A stretch of DNA of 31,205 nucleotides from positions 1 to 31,205 of the IMG/VR virus record IMGVR_UViG_3300032247_000312. One strand, written 5' to 3'. Each line of letters begins with the position of its first letter. The first letter of the stretch is position 1. Shown here one piece after another: positions 3,756 to 26,059 of this stretch. Below the pieces are notes generated by a model. It did no database searches and was not told the origin of the DNA. It was given only the letters and a program-made list of their open reading frames with translations. This stretch comes from a virus. Its lineage: Duplodnaviria; Caudoviricetes. The translations under genes were made by a program, and so were the position numbers.

Positions 3756-4031
3756 TCATTTCAGCACCTCCTGCACTTCGATGCGTTCCCAATTTGAATC
3801 GATTCGATTTTGATGGCAAATTTGATGGGTATGTTTGTTGATGTATATCACAAACGTGCGCGGTTCTGGTTTGATGCGGTACCTTTCTGGATCATCGCCA
3901 AATGAGATTTCTTCATCTTTTTCAAAATCCTCCCAATATGAGGTATCATCGTATTCTCGATATTGTAGGTTCTTGCCATCAACCCACGCTTGGATAAGCG
4001 GCAAAAATAAGTGTGCGTTCTCTTTATTCAT
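3756..4031 (-). CDS. Hypothetical phage protein (91 aa)
   Basis: LPLIQAWVDGKNLQY...YRIKPEP pattern common in phage accessory proteins. Confidence 0.6.
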   Translation of the reverse strand: MNKENAHLFLPLIQAWVDGKNLQYREYDDTSYWEDFEKDEEISFGDDPERYRIKPEPRTFVIYINKHTHQICHQNRIDSNWERIEVQEVLK

Positions 4032-4222
4032 AGTTCATCTTGGTATGCTATTTCTTCGATATCCATCAGCTTGTTCACAATTCTGTGGGCAACTGGCAAT
4101 GTCATAAGCGAGTTTTTCCCTTCTGGGAATTCTTCGCCATTGAGTTTCATTACCCATAGGCTTGAATTTATTTCATCCGTAAGATCACATTGATCATCGT
4201 GTAGTTCTAAGGTGATTTTCAT
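4028..4222 (-). CDS. Hypothetical acidic protein (64 aa)
   Basis: ORF with an ATGA overlap to the next gene. Confidence 0.5.
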   Translation of the reverse strand: MKITLELHDDQCDLTDEINSSLWVMKLNGEEFPEGKNSLMTLPVAHRIVNKLMDIEEIAYQDEL

Positions 4223-4232
4223 GGTTTAAGAA

Positions 4233-4308
4233 TGGTCAGCGAGCAGGGTTAGCGACCTGCGTTTCCCAGTTTATCGGTCTGGGCGACTTCGATCAAGTCC
4301 ATCGCTGG
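4233..4308 (-). ncRNA. tRNA-like cloverleaf RNA ending in CCA (non-canonical)
   Basis: The - strand reads CCAGCGA-TG-GACTT/GATCG/AAGTC-G-CCCAG/ACCGATAAA/CTGGG-AAAC-GCAGG/TCGCTAAC/CCTGC-TCGCTG-A-CCA. It is 76 nt long and intergenic. Confidence 0.7.
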
Positions 4309-4313
4309 TTGGG

Positions 4314-4469
4314 TTATGGTTTTTCGTCGTACCTCTCGTCGTCATGCGAATCGTGGTCTGGATCATTATCTGGATCTGGTCCAGGTTCAGCAGGCCCATC
4401 GCACAGAGGACAGAGTGATTCTGGATCGGGCCAGTTGGTCGATCCGCATAGGGAGCATGAATGTTTCAT
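4314..4469 (-). CDS. 51-aa Zn-ribbon protein with acidic tail (start MKHSCSLC)
   Basis: CSLC...CPLC followed by a D/P-rich tail. ATGA overlap with the upstream gene. Confidence 0.55.
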   Translation of the reverse strand: MKHSCSLCGSTNWPDPESLCPLCDGPAEPGPDPDNDPDHDSHDDERYDEKP

Positions 4470-4825
4470 TGTTTGACGGCTTTCATGGCCTTGTTGAGTA
4501 GTTTCTTGAATTCCGGTTCGTCCTCGTAAAGTTCGCCTGCACGTTTGATGTGATGCGGGACGATGCTGTGATCTGATCGTCCGATTGATATCGCAGTGCG
4601 CTGCAAGGACCAGTGTGGGTAGATGCCACGGATGACGTTTGTGTAAATGATCCGCGCCCAGGCAACCTCTTTGATCCGACTGTGACCCAAAATACTGAGA
4701 GATGATACGCCACACACATCGGCGATCTTGTTAAGGACATCGAGGTCGCGGCTGATTAATCCATCCTTGGTTCTTCTTTCGAGTTCCCGCATGAGATCCT
4801 TCGAGCTATACCTTTCAAGGCTCAT
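4466..4825 (-). CDS. DnaA C-terminal (domain IV) HTH-like protein
   Basis: ILGHSRIKEVAWARII...SLQRTAISIGRSDHSIVPH matches the DnaA domain IV consensus (SR..V..ARQ..SL..IG.RDHTTV.H). Confidence 0.8.
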   Translation of the reverse strand: MSLERYSSKDLMRELERRTKDGLISRDLDVLNKIADVCGVSSLSILGHSRIKEVAWARIIYTNVIRGIYPHWSLQRTAISIGRSDHSIVPHHIKRAGELYEDEPEFKKLLNKAMKAVKQ

Positions 4826-5253
4826 TTCAGTCTCCTTCCGTATTCCGCGATCAGCAGCGCGTCTGCCGTCGAGTGGGTGATCTTCAGCGTCGGAAAGAGC
4901 TCCTGCGCTCGGCGTTTGCTGACATTTTTATCTCCCTTGGTCATGCAGCCGAGAGCTTTCTGCCACGCTTGTGGTCGAATGCGCTCGAAAGGTATACCGC
5001 AGGCCGTCAGAGCCATCTCCAGATGACCAAAGCCATTGCCAAAAGTAAAAGCACTTTTAACACCCATTTGGGGGCTTGAATGCACCTGCTCAATGTAAGC
5101 TCGGCAATTTCCATCGTAACCCATGCTGTAAGAATTGAGCAATTCAAACAAGTCCTGCAAAGTCTCTGGCATTTTGTCAGCATAGGCGTCTCCTTTTTGG
5201 TCGATTACGGCGATTCCGCCATTTTTTCCCGGGTCGATTCCGATGGTGATCAT
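4822..5253 (-). CDS. RuvC-like Holliday junction resolvase
   Basis: IGIDPG, YIEQV, SAFTFG, PQAWQK and ADALLIA motifs. Confidence 0.85.
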   Translation of the reverse strand: MITIGIDPGKNGGIAVIDQKGDAYADKMPETLQDLFELLNSYSMGYDGNCRAYIEQVHSSPQMGVKSAFTFGNGFGHLEMALTACGIPFERIRPQAWQKALGCMTKGDKNVSKRRAQELFPTLKITHSTADALLIAEYGRRLK

Positions 5254-7617: not shown

Positions 7618-7679
7618 ATTAGTTTGGCGTTGCGTCGTGCAAATGCCGCCACAATGACTCTCAGAAACCAGATCGCAAC

Positions 7680-7731
7680 AAAAATCGTCTTTCAGAGTGA
7701 ATTTTTATTTTCACCCCAAAAGACGATTTTT
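7680..7731 (-). terminator. 22-bp hairpin downstream of the HTH gene (terminator and/or operator)
   Basis: AAAAATCGTCTTTTGGGGTGAA / TTCACTCTGAAAGACGATTTTT. The three mismatches are G-U pairs on the - strand, and the stem ends in a U run. Confidence 0.65.
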
Positions 7732-7738
7732 CTTGACG

Positions 7739-8092
7739 TTAAATTTTTACGCTACACTGACCGAGTGTACTCTCAGCAATGGCGTAGGCGCTCTTTATTG
7801 GCAATGGCGCCTTGCCGGATCGCCACGCCTCAACGGTGCGCGGAGATATGGCCAGCCGCTCTGCAACTGCGGCTGCGGTGCCGCCAAGTAGTTTGATAAT
7901 AACCTCCATGACTGCTCTCTGAGTCTCCGGAGGGCGTGATTGGATCACGCCACCAAGCCACATGATCCAGCGACCAGACGGCATAAGACAAATAATCCCA
8001 AAAGTCTCGGCGGCAAGTGGGACCGCGCCAGCAGGTAGCGGAGCGGTCCCCTGAATCCAACGGTCAAAATTGCTGATTGGCTTGAGTGTCAT
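7739..8092 (-). CDS. XRE-type HTH regulator (117 aa)
   Basis: C-terminal GGTAAAVAERLAISPRTVEAWRSGK HTH. Confidence 0.75.
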   Translation of the reverse strand: MTLKPISNFDRWIQGTAPLPAGAVPLAAETFGIICLMPSGRWIMWLGGVIQSRPPETQRAVMEVIIKLLGGTAAAVAERLAISPRTVEAWRSGKAPLPIKSAYAIAESTLGQCSVKI

Positions 8093-8101
8093 GGTCTTGG
8101 A

Positions 8102-8422
8102 TTATTTGGAGGATTTGCAGGCTGCTTGCAGTTCGGCGAGCGAATAACCGCGCTTGAGACAAGCGGCATTAGCGGCGGCAAGATCCTTGCCAGTAAAGCC
8201 CTGGCCGTTAAACCAAGCCTTCTCGGCGTCTAGGTCAAGAGTCAGCGGGGAGGATGCCTTGCGAGCATCGGCAAGCTCGGCGCTGAGTGCCTCGATCTCG
8301 GACTCGTCAAAGTAGCCGCCTTGGCCCTCGTTGATGAGTCGGCGGAAGTTGTCGCGCTTGATGCCAGCGGTGCAGAGGTCGGCTTCGATTTCGGAAACGG
8401 TGCGGTGTTTGGTGTTGGACAT
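8102..8422 (-). CDS. Hypothetical helical protein (106 aa), probably leaderless
   Basis: The ATG at 8422 lies 6 nt after the predicted -10 box. Confidence 0.6.
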   Translation of the reverse strand: MSNTKHRTVSEIEADLCTAGIKRDNFRRLINEGQGGYFDESEIEALSAELADARKASSPLTLDLDAEKAWFNGQGFTGKDLAAANAACLKRGYSLAELQAACKSSK

Positions 8423-9991: not shown

Positions 9992-10293
9992 AGCTTGTTG
10001 AGTTTTGCCATCAGTGCATCGACCGCTGGCAGAAAGATGTGTTCAATGGCTCTGACGATTGGCTCTTCCTCAATCTTCTTTGCCCAGGAGTGGCCGGCAA
10101 TGGACAGGGTGGCGTGCAGCATCTCATGGCGGATGGTATCAATCAGGATCACTCTGTTTTTCAATGCATGTTCCGAGATCCAGATTTCCCGATCGTCGAA
10201 GTGCATCATTCCCCAGTTCTCCATTTTCTTGATGACGATGCGGAATCTCATTCCGCCGATCATCACCGAAGATGGAACTGAGCGTCTTGGCAT
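9988..10293 (-). CDS. Small HExxH zinc metallopeptidase-like protein
   Basis: DTIRHEMLHA followed by EEPIV. Confidence 0.7.
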   Translation of the reverse strand: MPRRSVPSSVMIGGMRFRIVIKKMENWGMMHFDDREIWISEHALKNRVILIDTIRHEMLHATLSIAGHSWAKKIEEEPIVRAIEHIFLPAVDALMAKLNKL

Positions 10294-20521: not shown

Positions 20522-21070
20522 TCAACCTTCTGGCGCCGCGGTAGTGCCGGCATCGTGCGTGTAGCGATGCAAGATCTTGGGAATGTGGATCTCGGATGAG
20601 ACTCGTCTCCTTGCCTGATTACACCAGACGAGATCTTCGCCATAGTTTGATTCGCCGAACATACAGGTATCGACTAAATCGCGCCTCCATGCGCAGACGT
20701 GCCACGCTCCACGCTCAGTGATGCCGCCCGGGTTGAAAACTCTGTCTTGATTTTTCAACCTAAAATGAACGGTTGAGATCAGTCCGTTGTAGATTGCTTT
20801 TTGCTGGAACGTGATGACATCCGGCCTTTGCTCGATCGCCTTCAGAAGCTGTGGAATGTATTCCGGCGTCACATCATCGTCATCATCCATGAATGCGATG
20901 TATTGGCCGCGAGCAATATCAACAAGCGCCTGCCGTTTTGCGCCGATCGACCGCTTTCGATTGTCGCAGAAAATTAAATGTTCGACGTCTGGATGATCAA
21001 ATTTCTCGGTGAGCTTTTCGGCCTGCGCCAACCGACTAGGAATCGATGGGGTAAGAATTGAGAGTTTCAT
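20522..21070 (-). CDS. GT2/GT-A glycosyltransferase (182 aa)
   Basis: LSILTPS, SIGAKRQ, ARGQYIAFMDDDD (DxD) and GED motifs. Confidence 0.85.
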   Translation of the reverse strand: MKLSILTPSIPSRLAQAEKLTEKFDHPDVEHLIFCDNRKRSIGAKRQALVDIARGQYIAFMDDDDDVTPEYIPQLLKAIEQRPDVITFQQKAIYNGLISTVHFRLKNQDRVFNPGGITERGAWHVCAWRRDLVDTCMFGESNYGEDLVWCNQARRRVSSEIHIPKILHRYTHDAGTTAAPEG

Positions 21071-23289
21071 TTGCTGATATTTTTGATCCAGACGCGACCG
21101 ATTTTATTGATTTTGCATCCATCCACGGCTGCGTATTCATCGACGGCTTTTTTAACGTCATCAAATGGGTAATCGTGGCCACTGAAAATGCCGTTTGGTT
21201 TCACCTTCGACTTCCATGCCGTGATGTCTTTGGCTACCGAGTCATAGTCGTGCGCTGCATCGATGAAGACCACATCGCATGATTCGTCTGGAAAGATTGA
21301 TGCTGATTCTGCGCTGTCGCCCTCGATGATCTCGATCATGTGATCGACCTTGGCATCGGCAATGTTGCGCTTGAATTCACCAAGGATCGACCCGCCGTGT
21401 GACTCGACGATTGCGATGTGTCCCTGCTGGTAGAGTTCGCCTTTAAATGTGTCGATGCAGGTGACCTTTACCGTCTTGCCGAGGTTTTGAATTTCTTGGC
21501 AGAAATGGATGATGCTTTGACCCATCCAAGATCCAATCTCGACGAAGGTGCCGCCATCTGGAATTGCCTTTGCGATCGCAGAGTAGAACGCCTTGTAGTC
21601 GCACCACCCAGGAACATCAGATGCGATCTTCACTTCATTCTTGAGTCGATCGAGAATCGCTTTGCCACGCTCGTAGTTCTCGTCGGAATTGGATCTAGCA
21701 TAGGTTTCATCCATCTCTCCGACACCGAATGCCGGGTGATGATGCGTGAATGTAATGAAATCGCTCGCGTCGATCACCACATTGTCGCGATAGGCGCAAT
21801 GCGTGAACCAGTTGTCGGAATACATGCTAAAGAATTCTGGGTGGAATAGATAGCCTTGGTCCTCGTATCGCTTGCGAGTCACGATCGCCATGCAGAGCAG
21901 CTTGTCTTTCCGGTGACCATCGCTGACTGCAAGAACCGACGAGATTTCTGTCTGCCCAATAGCATCGATAATCGCTTTGTCCCATCCGGGGAATGCCTCG
22001 AAATCATCCGACATTTGCACCAGCACCTTTCCTTTGGAAAATTTTGCTGCAAGATTCCATGCCGCGACAGGTCCAGCGGATTCGCCGACGATTACGCTCT
22101 TGGCCATGCATAGCATTGCCGATTCCTCATCATCTGCATCGACCGCAAAAATATGTTCAATGGAATCTGGATCGCTTGCCATGCGCAGCCAGTCCATGCG
22201 CTGACGCCATGCGAGTGCCGGCCTTCCGCGAGTGGCATGTAAGAGTGAAATCTTGGCGCCGCTTTGGATGAAATGGTTGTCTTGTAGCGCATCAGCCTCG
22301 GCATCGCGTCCATTGCGCCGTAGTGCCATGCTGCGTAGGCTTTTACCTAGGTGGCCGTAATATGTGCGCCTGAGATTCCAAGGCGCCTCCTGTGGCAGTT
22401 TGAACGCAAGCATGGCCTCAGTCCATCCCAGCGCAGCAGTAGGATCGTCTGGTACGGATGCCAGTCCGAGTTCGCCGTATGCTTCTGGCCGAGTTGGATC
22501 GGTGGCGAGCGCCTGGAGGAGCATCGACTTCTTGACCGCAGGATCGCTGGCGAGTCGTGCGAGTTGGAAAAATGCCTCGTATCGTTCATTTTTTCCAGTG
22601 TCTTGTAGCTGCGCAAATTCCAATGCTGCCGTGATCGCCTCGGCATTGCGATCGAGCGCAATCAGACTTTGGAAGATGTGGAATTTTTGGGAGATCGTTC
22701 GGTCTTCTGGCGCGATAGATTCCAAAATCCTCAAGTTGCGCTCGTCCCTAGCTGCGGATCTCTTCTCTGATTCGTGCGTAATCTTCGCCGAATCGAATCG
22801 AATGAGCTTTGATTCCTCAGAGAATTTCAGACATTCATGAATCGGATGTTCCCACTTGGCAGTTCCTCGACGCCAGATCCGTTCGCGCCAGTTGATGACG
22901 CCGTCCTCCGGTACAACGTATGGCATCAGAACGCCATCAATCTCCTTGCCATCCAGATTCTTGAGCAGCAAATGAATCTGCTGGATTGAATCGGCATCGA
23001 TCATGTCGTCGGTATCGGCCCACATGACCCACGGTTTTGTTGCCATTTGAGTCGCTTGATTCCGAGCTGCGCCGAAGTCATCGACGTGCGGCCAGTCGAT
23101 CTTGTTCGTGTATCGCTGGACATTGCAGCCGGCATCTAAGCAGATCTGCTCAGTCTGATCTGGCTCACGATTGCCTGGAGCAATCACCACGTTGATTTCG
23201 CTGGCGAGTGGCGAGAAGTAGGCCAGAAACCTACGGATCACGCTTTCCGAATTGCCTGCAATTATGCAGAGGCTGAGTTCATTTTGCAT
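21067..23289 (-). CDS. Multidomain GT2 - TPR - GT-A - SAM methyltransferase protein (740 aa, start MQNELS)
   Basis: GT2: LSLCII, DDFGAARN, WADTDD, RERIWR, HPIHE. TPR: DPTRPEAYGELG. Second GT: SLLHATRGRP, VDADD, AAWN, MSDD, YSDN, HHHP. Methyltransferase: VEIGSWMGQS, FIDAAHDY, GHDY. Confidence 0.85.
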   Translation of the reverse strand: MQNELSLCIIAGNSESVIRRFLAYFSPLASEINVVIAPGNREPDQTEQICLDAGCNVQRYTNKIDWPHVDDFGAARNQATQMATKPWVMWADTDDMIDADSIQQIHLLLKNLDGKEIDGVLMPYVVPEDGVINWRERIWRRGTAKWEHPIHECLKFSEESKLIRFDSAKITHESEKRSAARDERNLRILESIAPEDRTISQKFHIFQSLIALDRNAEAITAALEFAQLQDTGKNERYEAFFQLARLASDPAVKKSMLLQALATDPTRPEAYGELGLASVPDDPTAALGWTEAMLAFKLPQEAPWNLRRTYYGHLGKSLRSMALRRNGRDAEADALQDNHFIQSGAKISLLHATRGRPALAWRQRMDWLRMASDPDSIEHIFAVDADDEESAMLCMAKSVIVGESAGPVAAWNLAAKFSKGKVLVQMSDDFEAFPGWDKAIIDAIGQTEISSVLAVSDGHRKDKLLCMAIVTRKRYEDQGYLFHPEFFSMYSDNWFTHCAYRDNVVIDASDFITFTHHHPAFGVGEMDETYARSNSDENYERGKAILDRLKNEVKIASDVPGWCDYKAFYSAIAKAIPDGGTFVEIGSWMGQSIIHFCQEIQNLGKTVKVTCIDTFKGELYQQGHIAIVESHGGSILGEFKRNIADAKVDHMIEIIEGDSAESASIFPDESCDVVFIDAAHDYDSVAKDITAWKSKVKPNGIFSGHDYPFDDVKKAVDEYAAVDGCKINKIGRVWIKNISK

Positions 23290-23308
23290 CTGCCAATTCG
23301 CAGATGTC

Positions 23309-23343
23309 AAAAATCCCACCCCGGATTGCTCCGAGATGGGATT
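23309..23343 (-). terminator. Rho-independent terminator after the capsid gene
   Basis: AATCCCATCTCGGA-GCAA-TCCGGGGTGGGATT followed by TTT, with a GNRA loop and G-U pairs on the - strand. Confidence 0.8.
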
Positions 23344-23371
23344 GATGCCAGAACCAATACCAGGGAGAATC

Positions 23372-24259
23372 TTATGGCTTAGTGCCAAGGACCAAGCCGA
23401 GAGTCAAGCCAGTGGCGACACCGTAGAAGCACTCAAATGCTCCGTAGTGAATGCCCTTGGCTGGGTCGAAGCTGCGACGATAGCCCATCGTGATGCCGTT
23501 CGGCGCGCTGACCTGCTCGGCTGCGAGATACATCGAAGTATCTTGCGGAGCGAGATAGCGCATTGCCAAGTTGATCGAGTCAGGGTGAGCAGCGAACGAG
23601 ACAAGCGAGGTCGAAGCAGTTGGAAGGATGTTGGTTTCGTAAGTATCGAATCCAACGAGCTTGCCAAGCGAACCGGTGCGAACAGCAGTGTTGTCACCGA
23701 GTGCATAGGCTTGCAAGACGTTGGAAGATCCAAGAAGTGCAGCGCCTACCACTGGGTTGAAGAAGCAGCTCACCATGTCGAGAGGGACATTGTTGAGGGA
23801 AAGTTGCTTACGGAATGCGATGATCTGAGCAAGCGTGTAGTTTGCCTCAGAAGTGGTCACCGATGCAGCACCATAGTTGCTTGTGGTGATGACCTTCCAG
23901 ATGTTTTCAAGAACCTTTGCAGCAAGTGCGCGGCCTGCTTGAGCAGCAATTGCGTCGAAACGTGCGCCGGACGAGTTGGCAACTTGGATGTCAGTCAGGT
24001 CCATCGTAACGATGTTGTGCTGATTCAAGCTGACCGTGTTGCTAGTCACTGCGCCGCCGCCAGTTTGATAGTTGGCAGTAGTTGCGTTGAAGGTTGTCGC
24101 AGTGAGCGCCGAGATAAACGGAACAACGATTGCATCGCCTTTATTGCGAGCTTCGCTGCTGATGTTGCGCGAGAATGCGCTGATTGGTGACAATGCAGCA
24201 TTGAAAGCATTGAGTGCTTCTTGCGCAAAGATCGTATCGTTGAATGAAACTGTAGCCAT
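23372..24259 (-). CDS. Major capsid protein (295 aa)
   Basis: Position after the scaffold, KGDAIVVP and GSLGKLVGFDTYE HK97-fold motifs, followed by a terminator. Confidence 0.85.
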   Translation of the reverse strand: MATVSFNDTIFAQEALNAFNAALSPISAFSRNISSEARNKGDAIVVPFISALTATTFNATTANYQTGGGAVTSNTVSLNQHNIVTMDLTDIQVANSSGARFDAIAAQAGRALAAKVLENIWKVITTSNYGAASVTTSEANYTLAQIIAFRKQLSLNNVPLDMVSCFFNPVVGAALLGSSNVLQAYALGDNTAVRTGSLGKLVGFDTYETNILPTASTSLVSFAAHPDSINLAMRYLAPQDTSMYLAAEQVSAPNGITMGYRRSFDPAKGIHYGAFECFYGVATGLTLGLVLGTKP

Positions 24260-24271
24260 TGTATTTGTTAG

Positions 24272-24724
24272 TTAGAGACTGAGAATTTTTGAGCGGTTTT
24301 TGCTATAATAGTCCGAGCGATCCTCGGGTGAGAGCTTCGACATGATAGCGAAGTGATCCACTTCAGCGGTTGTCTCGGTTGCGATCTCCTCGATGTGAGT
24401 TGGGTGACCAGTTGCAGAGAGCAAACGAGATGCTTCTAGTGAAATTTTTTCAGTAGATGCTTCCGACTTTTCAGTCAGTTCGGTGATGCTGACTTCTTGC
24501 TCGGCGATTTTTTTCTCGGCTTCTTTCATAGCTTCAGTCTTTTCGTCGAGTTCAGCTTTTGCTGAAATGAGTTCAGTCACCGCATTTTGCAACTCGGTTT
24601 CAACCATCGCAAATTTTGCGGTGGCTTCGGAAATTGATGCTTCAAGCGATTTGATCTCGCTATCTTTTGCTTCAATCTTGGAAGCAAGTTCTGCGTTTGG
24701 CAAAAGTTTGTCGAGGATGCTCAT
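24272..24724 (-). CDS. Internal in-frame scaffolding protein (150 aa, MSILDK...), lambda Nu3-like
   Basis: Coiled-coil acidic C-terminal part of the protease ORF, with its own TTGACAT box 17 nt before the ATG. Confidence 0.7.
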   Translation of the reverse strand: MSILDKLLPNAELASKIEAKDSEIKSLEASISEATAKFAMVETELQNAVTELISAKAELDEKTEAMKEAEKKIAEQEVSITELTEKSEASTEKISLEASRLLSATGHPTHIEEIATETTAEVDHFAIMSKLSPEDRSDYYSKNRSKILSL

Positions 24725-26059
24725 ACTTGCCTTGGTTGGCATGTCAAATTTTGGACCGATCACCTTGTCGATCAGACCCATCGCAAATGCCTTGTCAGCA
24801 TTCAGCCAAGTTTCGCTTTTCATCATTTTGCGAATCACTTCTTTTCCAATGCCAGACTTGCCAGCGTAGATATCTGCGATCTCGTCAGAGATTCCATCCA
24901 AGAATTGTGATACCTGAAGATGATCGCTTGAATTCCCAGTAGAGTTCAGAGATGCGTCGTGGATCATCATCTGACCACCCTTGACCATGTGGATCTCATC
25001 GGCTGCCATAGCGATTACCGATGCCATAGAAGCTGCAAGTGAGTTGATGATCGCAGTGACCTTCACACCGCGATCGCGCATGGCAAGGATCGCGTAGTAT
25101 AGTCGGTATCCATCAAGCACAGATCCACCGCCAGAGTTGATCTCCATGATGACCTCCTCAAGAGCGCCATCTGCGCTTGCAGTTACGCCGGCGATCTCTG
25201 TGCCGATTGCGTTTTGTCCGTAGAGTCGACCCATCTCTTCAATGATCGTGTCGATTGAGTATGGAGTGACAGCTTCATTGAGCTTCACTTTTCCGACTTT
25301 GTTTTCGATTGAAAGATAGTTCATTGCTTTTGATTGTTTGGGTTGTGCATTGATTTGTTTGAGTCGAGTTTCGGCCCATGACTTGCCGGCATCTCCGCCC
25401 CATAGCGCCCAGGCGATTCTTCCTGCTGATGGGTAACCATCCTCGCCAGGCGAGAATCCAGATGCTTGCTTGTCGACTTCATGTCGTGCGAAGAAGCTGA
25501 CCATTCGGCCAATAGTTTCTTCAGAAAGATTGACTCTGTTTGAGATGTCGCGAGCGCGAGCAACTCCGATAGCAGTTCCACCTCGGTTAAATTCTTGCCT
25601 CCATTGTAATCCACGAGACGCTTCTGCTGCCATTGCATCGGTTGGTTTAAGATCGATAGCATCAATTGCATCTTCGATCGTCTGATATTCTTTGACGATC
25701 TCAGCCGGATCGATCACTTCCTCAATTCCCAAAGATGAGTATGCATCACGCGCACGAGCATCATTGTCGATTGCCTCGACAATATCATACCCTTCATCCA
25801 TCAGTTTCTTGGCCTTGTATTTTTTGAATTGAACCTCGGCGCCTTGTGGGAAATCGCTGAGATGAATCTGCGAATGCGGGACATCATGCGCATTGAGCAG
25901 ATCACGGGTCTCCTGCATCTGTGAATCTTGACGCCCACTTACGATGATGACGTCGTGATCCATCGATTCATCCTTGAGATAGTCGATGACTTCTTGAATC
26001 GGCGATTCTCCATTGAATAGAGTGCCGTCGATGTCGCAGATTATTGATGGATTAGGCAT
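24272..26059 (-). CDS. HAD phosphatase - linker domain - ClpP-type prohead protease - scaffold fusion (595 aa)
   Basis: HAD: CDIDGTL, IVSGR, FKK, AIDND. ClpP: INSGGGSV, SLAASMASVI, MMIHDAS, ETWLNADKA. Confidence 0.85.
   Translation of the reverse strand: MPNPSIICDIDGTLFNGESPIQEVIDYLKDESMDHDVIIVSGRQDSQMQETRDLLNAHDVPHSQIHLSDFPQGAEVQFKKYKAKKLMDEGYDIVEAIDNDARARDAYSSLGIEEVIDPAEIVKEYQTIEDAIDAIDLKPTDAMAAEASRGLQWRQEFNRGGTAIGVARARDISNRVNLSEETIGRMVSFFARHEVDKQASGFSPGEDGYPSAGRIAWALWGGDAGKSWAETRLKQINAQPKQSKAMNYLSIENKVGKVKLNEAVTPYSIDTIIEEMGRLYGQNAIGTEIAGVTASADGALEEVIMEINSGGGSVLDGYRLYYAILAMRDRGVKVTAIINSLAASMASVIAMAADEIHMVKGGQMMIHDASLNSTGNSSDHLQVSQFLDGISDEIADIYAGKSGIGKEVIRKMMKSETWLNADKAFAMGLIDKVIGPKFDMPTKASMSILDKLLPNAELASKIEAKDSEIKSLEASISEATAKFAMVETELQNAVTELISAKAELDEKTEAMKEAEKKIAEQEVSITELTEKSEASTEKISLEASRLLSATGHPTHIEEIATETTAEVDHFAIMSKLSPEDRSDYYSKNRSKILSL

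Follow-up and report, generated by a model that had tools for sequence, protein, structure and literature searches.

Covariation among homologues indicates that the tRNA-shaped element described here belongs to a real, selected family of phage RNA elements that is absent from Rfam. It was studied in the window, by which we mean the whole stretch of DNA analysed, a 31.2-kb linear virus record. Our preferred reading, to which we give a probability of about 45%, is that the element is a non-decoding mimic of tRNA-Ile that would be excised by host enzymes and act in trans as a decoy. To our knowledge, phages counter defences that attack tRNA with functional replacement tRNAs or with repair enzymes. 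If true, a conserved non-decoding mimic that keeps only the ends read by a synthetase would be a different, RNA-only strategy. Annotation tools miss the element, and even as a mere processing signal it would be an unlisted phage RNA family. With fixed ends and a free elbow, its 50 natural variants would allow a direct test of the tolerance of isoleucyl-tRNA synthetase (IleRS), RNase P and the CCA-adding enzyme, for an 11-bp branch among other things.

A covarying cloverleaf family in phages

An earlier note on this DNA, made from the letters alone, had described an intergenic 76-nt tRNA mimic. The intergenic position holds in the window, where the element lies 6 nt past the stop of a 51-aa ORF and 10 nt ahead of the next ATG, and the sequence contains the four stems, the loops and the ACCA end as claimed. 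The unit in the window is 75 nt long (4307 to 4233), and base 4308 is a variable leader (A in 47, C in 11 and T in 7 of 65 contexts). The parts of the element are:

4233..4307, minus strand: whole cloverleaf, with a 6-bp acceptor stem, 2-nt linker, 4-bp D stem, R26, 5-bp anticodon stem, 9-nt loop, 4-nt variable region, 5-bp T stem and ACCA
4302..4307, minus strand: 5' strand of the acceptor stem (C1 to A6), pairing with 4237-4242
4285..4299, minus strand: D arm, a 4-bp stem and a 7-nt loop without G18G19
4265..4283, minus strand: anticodon arm, a 5-bp stem followed by an A.A mismatch that closes a 7-nt C-C-GAU-A-A loop resembling tRNA-Ile(GAU)
4243..4260, minus strand: T arm, a 5-bp stem whose outer G-C pairs are invariant and an 8-nt loop without TTC
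4233..4236, minus strand: 3' tail, A73-C74-C75-A76

The cloverleaf is both the minimum free energy and the centroid fold (-28.1 kcal/mol, z = -3.9), its energy is matched by 0 of 200 shuffles, and the same fold is kept when 150 nt of flank are included. The acceptor stem has 6 bp, one fewer than in tRNA, so that the acceptor/T branch is 6/5 (11 bp) and not 7/5; the note had written the six pairs out but did not flag the shortfall. Its 5-bp D stem with a 5-nt loop gives way to a 4-bp stem with a loop of 5-7 nt, the form favoured by the homologues. ARAGORN called no genes in the window. For the element, Rfam 15 gave no covariance-model match to any family, even with the threshold relaxed to E = 5.

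Family members were gathered from public viral and metagenome contigs. An initial exact scan returned a single chance match, and a RuvC query returned 80 loci, 7 of them with the element. Pattern scans, which overlap, found 14 members in 83 loci, 40 in 54, 39 in 51 (metagenome), 39 in 41 and 39 in 39; loci that failed the structure parse were excluded as non-members. The resulting set holds 50 distinct versions of the element, 70-76 nt long, in 65 distinct flank contexts. Model R1, whose training set included the window sequence, scores the window cloverleaf at 103 bits. It found no distant homologues in the remaining 73 of the 80 RuvC loci, none in 77 of 80 loci of a second RuvC type, none in 37 of 63 loci of a 70-aa upstream ORF, and none in 20 host-phylum genomes (150 candidates scored per genome), where the best score was 25.5 bits for a sequence without a cloverleaf. 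A relaxed cloverleaf finder revealed no further consistent family, and GenBank phages gave no match to the element.

In the alignment of the 50 sequences, 99.3% of 978 stem cells pair; these cells are not independent events, since the sequences are close relatives (86% mean column identity). Compensatory change is seen in 11 of the 20 pairs, spread over all four stems, and several pair positions take three pair types, which requires repeated substitution events. None of 500 shuffled alignments scored as high, in a shuffle that ignores relatedness, and slid controls gave 28-34%. The non-Watson-Crick cells comprise 10 G-U, 5 A-C and 3 others, and the excess of G-U over A-C lends weak support to this strand functioning as RNA. 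The compensatory changes in all four stems support the proposal that shape was selected rather than left to decay, and the covarying cloverleaf supports reading the element as a tRNA-like non-coding RNA.

The same data bear on whether the sequence is a DNA-level structure, such as a recombination hotspot or resolvase substrate, or else a decaying tRNA or attP remnant, both of which we regard as most improbable. Its place beside RuvC-like genes in most contexts, at a module-exchange junction, is what such a DNA structure would suggest; the surplus of G-U cells, the ACC overhang on the coding strand and the less distinct fold of the opposite strand (z of -1.9 versus -3.6) count against it. As for a remnant, no member was found among the 71 matches of a GTDB pattern scan, no tRNA of one genome examined for this purpose (G286) is closely alike, no integrase occurs among the 49 window ORFs, and the stems are maintained. 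An origin as an attachment-site or host-tRNA remnant was rejected on these grounds. The outcomes that the note had named as refuting, homologues lacking compensatory change or identity to a host tRNA or attP remnant, did not arise.

In the literature on phage structured RNAs and counter-defence tRNAs, covered mostly outside subscription journals, we found no description tied to the family. Fremin 2023 (PMC10690425) predicted more than 8,000 structured RNAs from IMG/VR, and its main text presents five candidates that overlap ARAGORN calls. Motif and id searches of the tables of that study, alignments aside, did not find the element, which may be one of its unnamed candidates.

Fixed ends, a free elbow and the likeness to tRNA-Ile

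Some positions were forced by the search patterns, and the anticodon loop, acceptor and tail were therefore rechecked in scans that left each of them unforced. When the anticodon loop was left free, A-C-N-GAU-AAA was still present in 37 of 39 member loci, and the scan that freed the acceptor and tail still had both in 39 of 39. The pairs C1-G72 and C4-G69 occur in 50/50 members. The anticodon loop is the most conserved loop of the element, being identical in 44 members, different at position 33 alone in 4 and replaced by 5 nt in 2; it has 9 nt in 48/50, and position 33 is C in 44/50 and U in 3/50. There are 13 forms of the anticodon stem, 10 of the T stem, 11 of the D loop and 14 of the T loop, which is 5, 8 or 9 nt long (5 nt in 12/50). 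With the acceptor end and anticodon loop fixed and the D and T loops variable, the ends of the L are held and its elbow is free.

The conserved loop residues of tRNA had been described as lost. This is correct for TTC (0/50 T loops) and for G18G19 (GG in 1/50 D loops), but not for the Ile(GAU)-like anticodon loop, nor for U8, purine 26, C48, G49-C65, G53-C61 and the AAY end of the T loop (50/50), all of which are kept. The description of a CCA end was too strong: ACC is invariant (50/50), but the fourth base is A in 29, T in 16 and C in 5 members, and each of the 12 members whose T loop has 5 nt finishes in ACCT.

Two members from different phage backgrounds (L288:1501-1571 and L300:1500-1570) have the 9-nt GAU loop replaced by the 5-nt loops CCAAT and CTTAT, respectively, with the rest kept. 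The cloverleaf persists there without the GAU loop, which is thus not needed by all members.

The bacterial Ile identity set, as given in PMC9976931, comprises A73, C4-G69, U12-A23, C29-G41, the anticodon, A37 and A38. Among the family, A73 and C4-G69 are present in 50/50 and G34-A35-U36-A37-A38 in 48/50; C29-G41 is found in 26 of 48 members, and U12-A23 is absent in the standard register. The tRNA-Ile copies fetched from the likely host phylum (n = 29) carry the loop CTGATAA (11) or TTGATAA (18). Taken as the 7 nt closed by the A.A mismatch, the loop of the element is one base off CTGATAA, a likeness to be set beside a chance level of about 4% of 7-mers within one change of any anticodon loop in one such genome. 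At an 80% threshold, which also yields many false calls, ARAGORN called 20 of the 50 members, all as Ile(GAT). The pair C1-G72 is a feature of tRNA-Pro and not of tRNA-Ile, and its combination with A73 is common to three tRNA-Pro of G286. A tRNA-Pro mimic was not adopted because the GG anticodon is absent; a pattern search found no tRNA among the 10 loci fetched.

With canonical tRNA-Ile(GAU) (RF00005) the element shares the order of the cloverleaf, the junction lengths, U8, R26, C48, G53-C61 and an A58-type base, in addition to A73, C4-G69 and GAU-A37-A38. More generally, a four-stem cloverleaf, U8, R26, Y48, G53-C61 and an unpaired 3' NCC(A) are all present. It differs from canonical tRNA in its 6/5 branch (50/50) in place of a 7-bp acceptor and 5-bp T stem, in the lack of the G18G19 and T54-Psi55-C56 elbow, in a 9-nt loop with C33 in place of 7 nt with U33, and in encoding A76 in 29/50 only. 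The element is not a standard tRNA, and lies outside the canonical tRNA, allo-tRNA, Y RNA and C4 classes.

Non-canonical cloverleaves missed by standard tools are known, some of them in phages, and include the 8/4 and 9/3 allo-tRNAs and tRNA-Pyl (PMC5389517, PMC7609411). According to PMC5389517, EF-Tu recognises a 12-bp branch, and the exceptional bacterial tRNAs described there have 12 or 13 bp. Allo-tRNAs and tRNA-Pyl keep the 12-bp branch, whereas the element has 11 bp (6/5), a 4-nt variable region without a long variable arm, no CUA and no G73. Like tRNA-Pyl, it is without G18G19 and TPsiC; tRNA-Pyl, which has a longer anticodon stem, nevertheless decodes (PMC7609411).

The tRNA-Pyl precedent, the presence of Ile identity elements and the nuclease-escape loop changes carried by phage tRNAs (PMC10264068) would all be compatible with a working, non-canonical tRNA-Ile(GAU) that decodes AUC/AUU while escaping a host anticodon nuclease. 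We consider this quite unlikely, given a 6/5 branch where the non-canonical bacterial tRNAs described so far in these sources have 12 or 13 bp, a 9-nt loop with C33, a 5-nt T loop in 12/50 and a missing A76 in 21/50.

The tRNA mimic YrlA, a Y RNA, is also found in phages (PMC4201824), and a near-match to its Ro60 motif, with one extra base, lies in the D arm of 39/50 members. Unlike YrlA as described there, the element has no conserved T arm and is not circularly permuted. A Y RNA was rejected: the exact motif GNCGAAN0-1G occurs in 0/50 members, and a TROVE/Ro60 gene in 0 of 44 sequence sets (24 phage records and 20 host-phylum genomes), with the control positive in 2/14.

A proposed non-decoding decoy and its predicted processing

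In the preferred reading, the element would be transcribed within a replication/accessory operon, and host RNase P together with 3' trimming is predicted to release it. It would be excluded from EF-Tu and the ribosome, and reading of codons is probably impossible, with the branch one base pair short and the elbow lost. Since tRNA-Pyl decodes without G18G19 and TPsiC, the arguments against decoding that carry weight here are the 11-bp branch, a 9-nt loop with C33, and an A76 that is often missing. The released RNA would most likely be a decoy that engages a host protein able to recognise both ends of tRNA-Ile(GAU). Putative targets are IleRS itself and defence or toxin enzymes directed at tRNA-Ile. 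With one A.A layer more in its anticodon arm, the element may make up for the missing acceptor pair, and would in that way keep the distance from tail to anticodon that a synthetase-like reader measures.

This reading fits the pattern of conservation, in which the ends read by IleRS and the ACC read by RNase P are kept and the elbow is free. It fits less well with an A76 that is not encoded in 21/50 members, the absent U12-A23, C33 in 44/50 and the Pro-like C1-G72. Moreover, CCA repair, RNase P and EF-Tu use a 12-bp branch (PMC5389517, PMC10731613) and may handle a top half of 11 bp poorly. A precedent in function is the non-proteogenic tRNA-Gly of Staphylococcus, which is charged by the synthetase yet kept from EF-Tu and the ribosome (PMC7826273); those tRNAs, however, are host genes with a known transferase partner, and no aminoacyl-transferase was found among the 33 common neighbours of the element that were scanned. 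In a bolder form, the family would be a new 6/5 tRNA architecture whose short branch is balanced by an anticodon arm one layer longer, charged with Ile by the host synthetase and invisible to the ribosome. It would be an RNA-only counter-defence against a system attacking tRNA-Ile, traded among unrelated Verrucomicrobiota phages, with the loop swaps of L288 and L300 aimed at other targets; this we think unlikely.

The main rival to the decoy, which we judge somewhat unlikely, is a cis-acting cut site for RNase P that would divide the operon and give the downstream accessory genes a fresh, structured and stable 5' end. RNase P pairs with a 3' RCC, and some of the substrates it cuts, the phage C4 RNA among them, have no TPsiC loop (PMC10731613). 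With C4 RNA and the other non-tRNA substrates in that source the element shares its nature as a small structured phage RNA within a transcript, a closing helix followed by RCC, and the lack of a TPsiC loop. Its helix is indeed followed by 3' RCC (ACC in 50/50), and the combination of an invariant ACC with a free A76 is what RNase P pairing requires. The 12-bp helix, the TPsiC loop and the U(-1)/G(+1) optimum are absent, features of which known substrates also lack some: the element has 11 bp, no TTC and C+1, and U at -1 in 7/65 contexts. The shortness of the helix and the rarity of U at that position count against a cut site, as does the anticodon loop, which RNase P does not read and which is nevertheless the most conserved loop, although it is lost in two members.

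Gene order adds arguments on both sides. The element is always co-directional with its tightly packed neighbours, with the first ATG 10-117 nt downstream in 60/65 contexts, and its position marks the boundary between replication/recombination genes and a variable array, all as a punctuating cut site would have it. The upstream ORF stops 5-10 nt before the cloverleaf in 32/65 contexts and inside it in 30/65 (3/65 unresolved); in those 30, a 5' cut would remove the stop codon and leave an mRNA without one, a difficulty both for cutting in cis and for release of a decoy. Close relatives, moreover, join the same neighbours without the element. The ORFs that run into the cloverleaf are often RuvC, and since related resolvases end a few residues past the conserved motif, this read-through represents a gained tail.

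Also acting in cis would be a protein-binding regulatory fold that serves antitermination or controls translation of the downstream array, its likeness to tRNA being incidental or only ancestral. The element heads a long run of small genes, its invariant unpaired core residues could form a binding surface, and translation of the upstream ORF into it could modulate folding. We rate this distinctly improbable, with no fixed downstream gene, no consensus terminator near the element on the minus strand, and the ACC overhang and tRNA-type junction lengths left unexplained.

Two further candidates were rejected. For an antisense RNA of the C4/CI type, the longest loop complement within 3 kb averages 6.7-7.0 nt against 6.5-6.6 nt in shuffled sequence, with no shared complement position (52 of 65 contexts were long enough to test). 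For a leader peptide within the element, the window has a 17-codon frame starting at the ATG of positions 6-8, but 19/50 variants have no such ATG. The note had also suggested a substrate for a TGT-like enzyme, which is not supported by the distribution of that gene (1/23 bearers and 1/13 non-bearers of the element); the TGT label is itself tentative, the gene of the window belonging to phrog_15826 (unknown function), with no Pfam match and no PDB sequence match.

Mobility, neighbours and probable host

The minus strand of the window encodes terminase, portal, capsid, tail, endolysin, RecT, a YqaJ exonuclease and a RuvC-like resolvase. Nearest to the element are:

4314..4469, minus strand: upstream 51-aa Cys-rich ORF, one of several unrelated upstream neighbours across the family
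4028..4222, minus strand: downstream 64-aa ORF, which starts 10 nt past the ACCA and opens a variable run of small accessory ORFs
4822..5253, minus strand: RuvC-like Holliday junction resolvase (phrog_1770), with the element about 0.5 kb downstream

Model R1 finds one copy of the element in each of 23 records selected as bearers, with two in one self-repeating (duplicated) assembly, and none in 13 RuvC relatives picked as non-bearers, 11 of which are at least 90% complete. The bearers include genomes of about 33-38 kb and of about 57-63 kb, and the capsid type of the window occurs in only 1/23. Upstream neighbours fall into at least six unrelated ORF families, and downstream neighbours into many more. 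What stays constant is the presence in the flank of a RuvC-like gene, of two types (38 and 12 of 65 contexts) and in most cases immediately upstream. For one upstream ORF, the element accompanies 26 of the 31 closest relatives and is missing from the site in 4, while 1 ends too early. Of the empty sites in close relatives, one joins the neighbours directly (L632) and another misses about 63 nt of the element (L538); five fragmentary records without the element at the site carry none elsewhere in those records. The element thus behaves as an accessory gene or cassette, gained and lost, and carried by several unrelated, uncultured phages whose capsids differ.

In 18/65 contexts the element is closely followed by a gene for an RNA ligase (PF09414), which is found in 11/23 bearers versus 0/13 non-bearers. 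The link is loose, as the ligase also occurs without the element (L643 and L646) and the non-bearers are more distant; the ligase is absent from the record of the window. The proteins concerned (L006:7455-8117 and relatives) form a family of about 220 aa (PF09414, phrog_548) in the accessory array, with no PDB sequence match.

Relatives of the window capsid (26-38% identity) were detected in 20 of 401 genomes from the phylum of G037, a Lentisphaerae bacterium, and in 0 of 251 genomes in each of three other phyla. We take G037 to fall within Verrucomicrobiota in GTDB. The host is probably a member of Verrucomicrobiota, as the capsid relatives are confined to this phylum among the four searched.

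Several other features were noted in these genomes. A second conserved structured element of about 85 nt lies 5-20 nt past the cloverleaf in some phages and kilobases off in others (L005:7041-7128, L006:7356-7443, L008, L012:1338-1424, L203, L215, L218 and L219, with diverged forms at L013 ~10060-10150 and L035 ~8060-8150). The loop of its hairpin could pair with a segment downstream to form a pseudoknot, and an inner hairpin is capped by TTCCAAA, which resembles a T loop. This second element is absent from the window, has no Rfam match and displays little covariation among 12 close copies. In a 58.6-kb bearer, a multi-hairpin stretch with a closing stem and a TTCGA hairpin (L499:250-380; G005:C1:~10150-10280) gives a weak R1 match on the other strand.

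A degenerate tRNA-Met(CAT)-like sequence with an intact T arm and a reduced D arm (L497:10138-10209; G286:C1:2236137-2236206) sits in a prophage, between its portal and head genes; the capsid of this prophage is a relative of the window capsid. A conserved A/T-rich long imperfect hairpin, intergenic and upstream of early/replication genes (window 7671-7743 and L005:3261-3338), has only a chance Rfam match and is possibly a promoter/operator or a terminator. The window also encodes, on the minus strand, a Clp-type head maturation protease with an N-terminal HAD-like fusion (24272-26059; PF08282 weak, PF24694). Directly past the capsid gene are two glycosyltransferase genes (20522-23388, minus strand), one of them with a fused methyltransferase domain.
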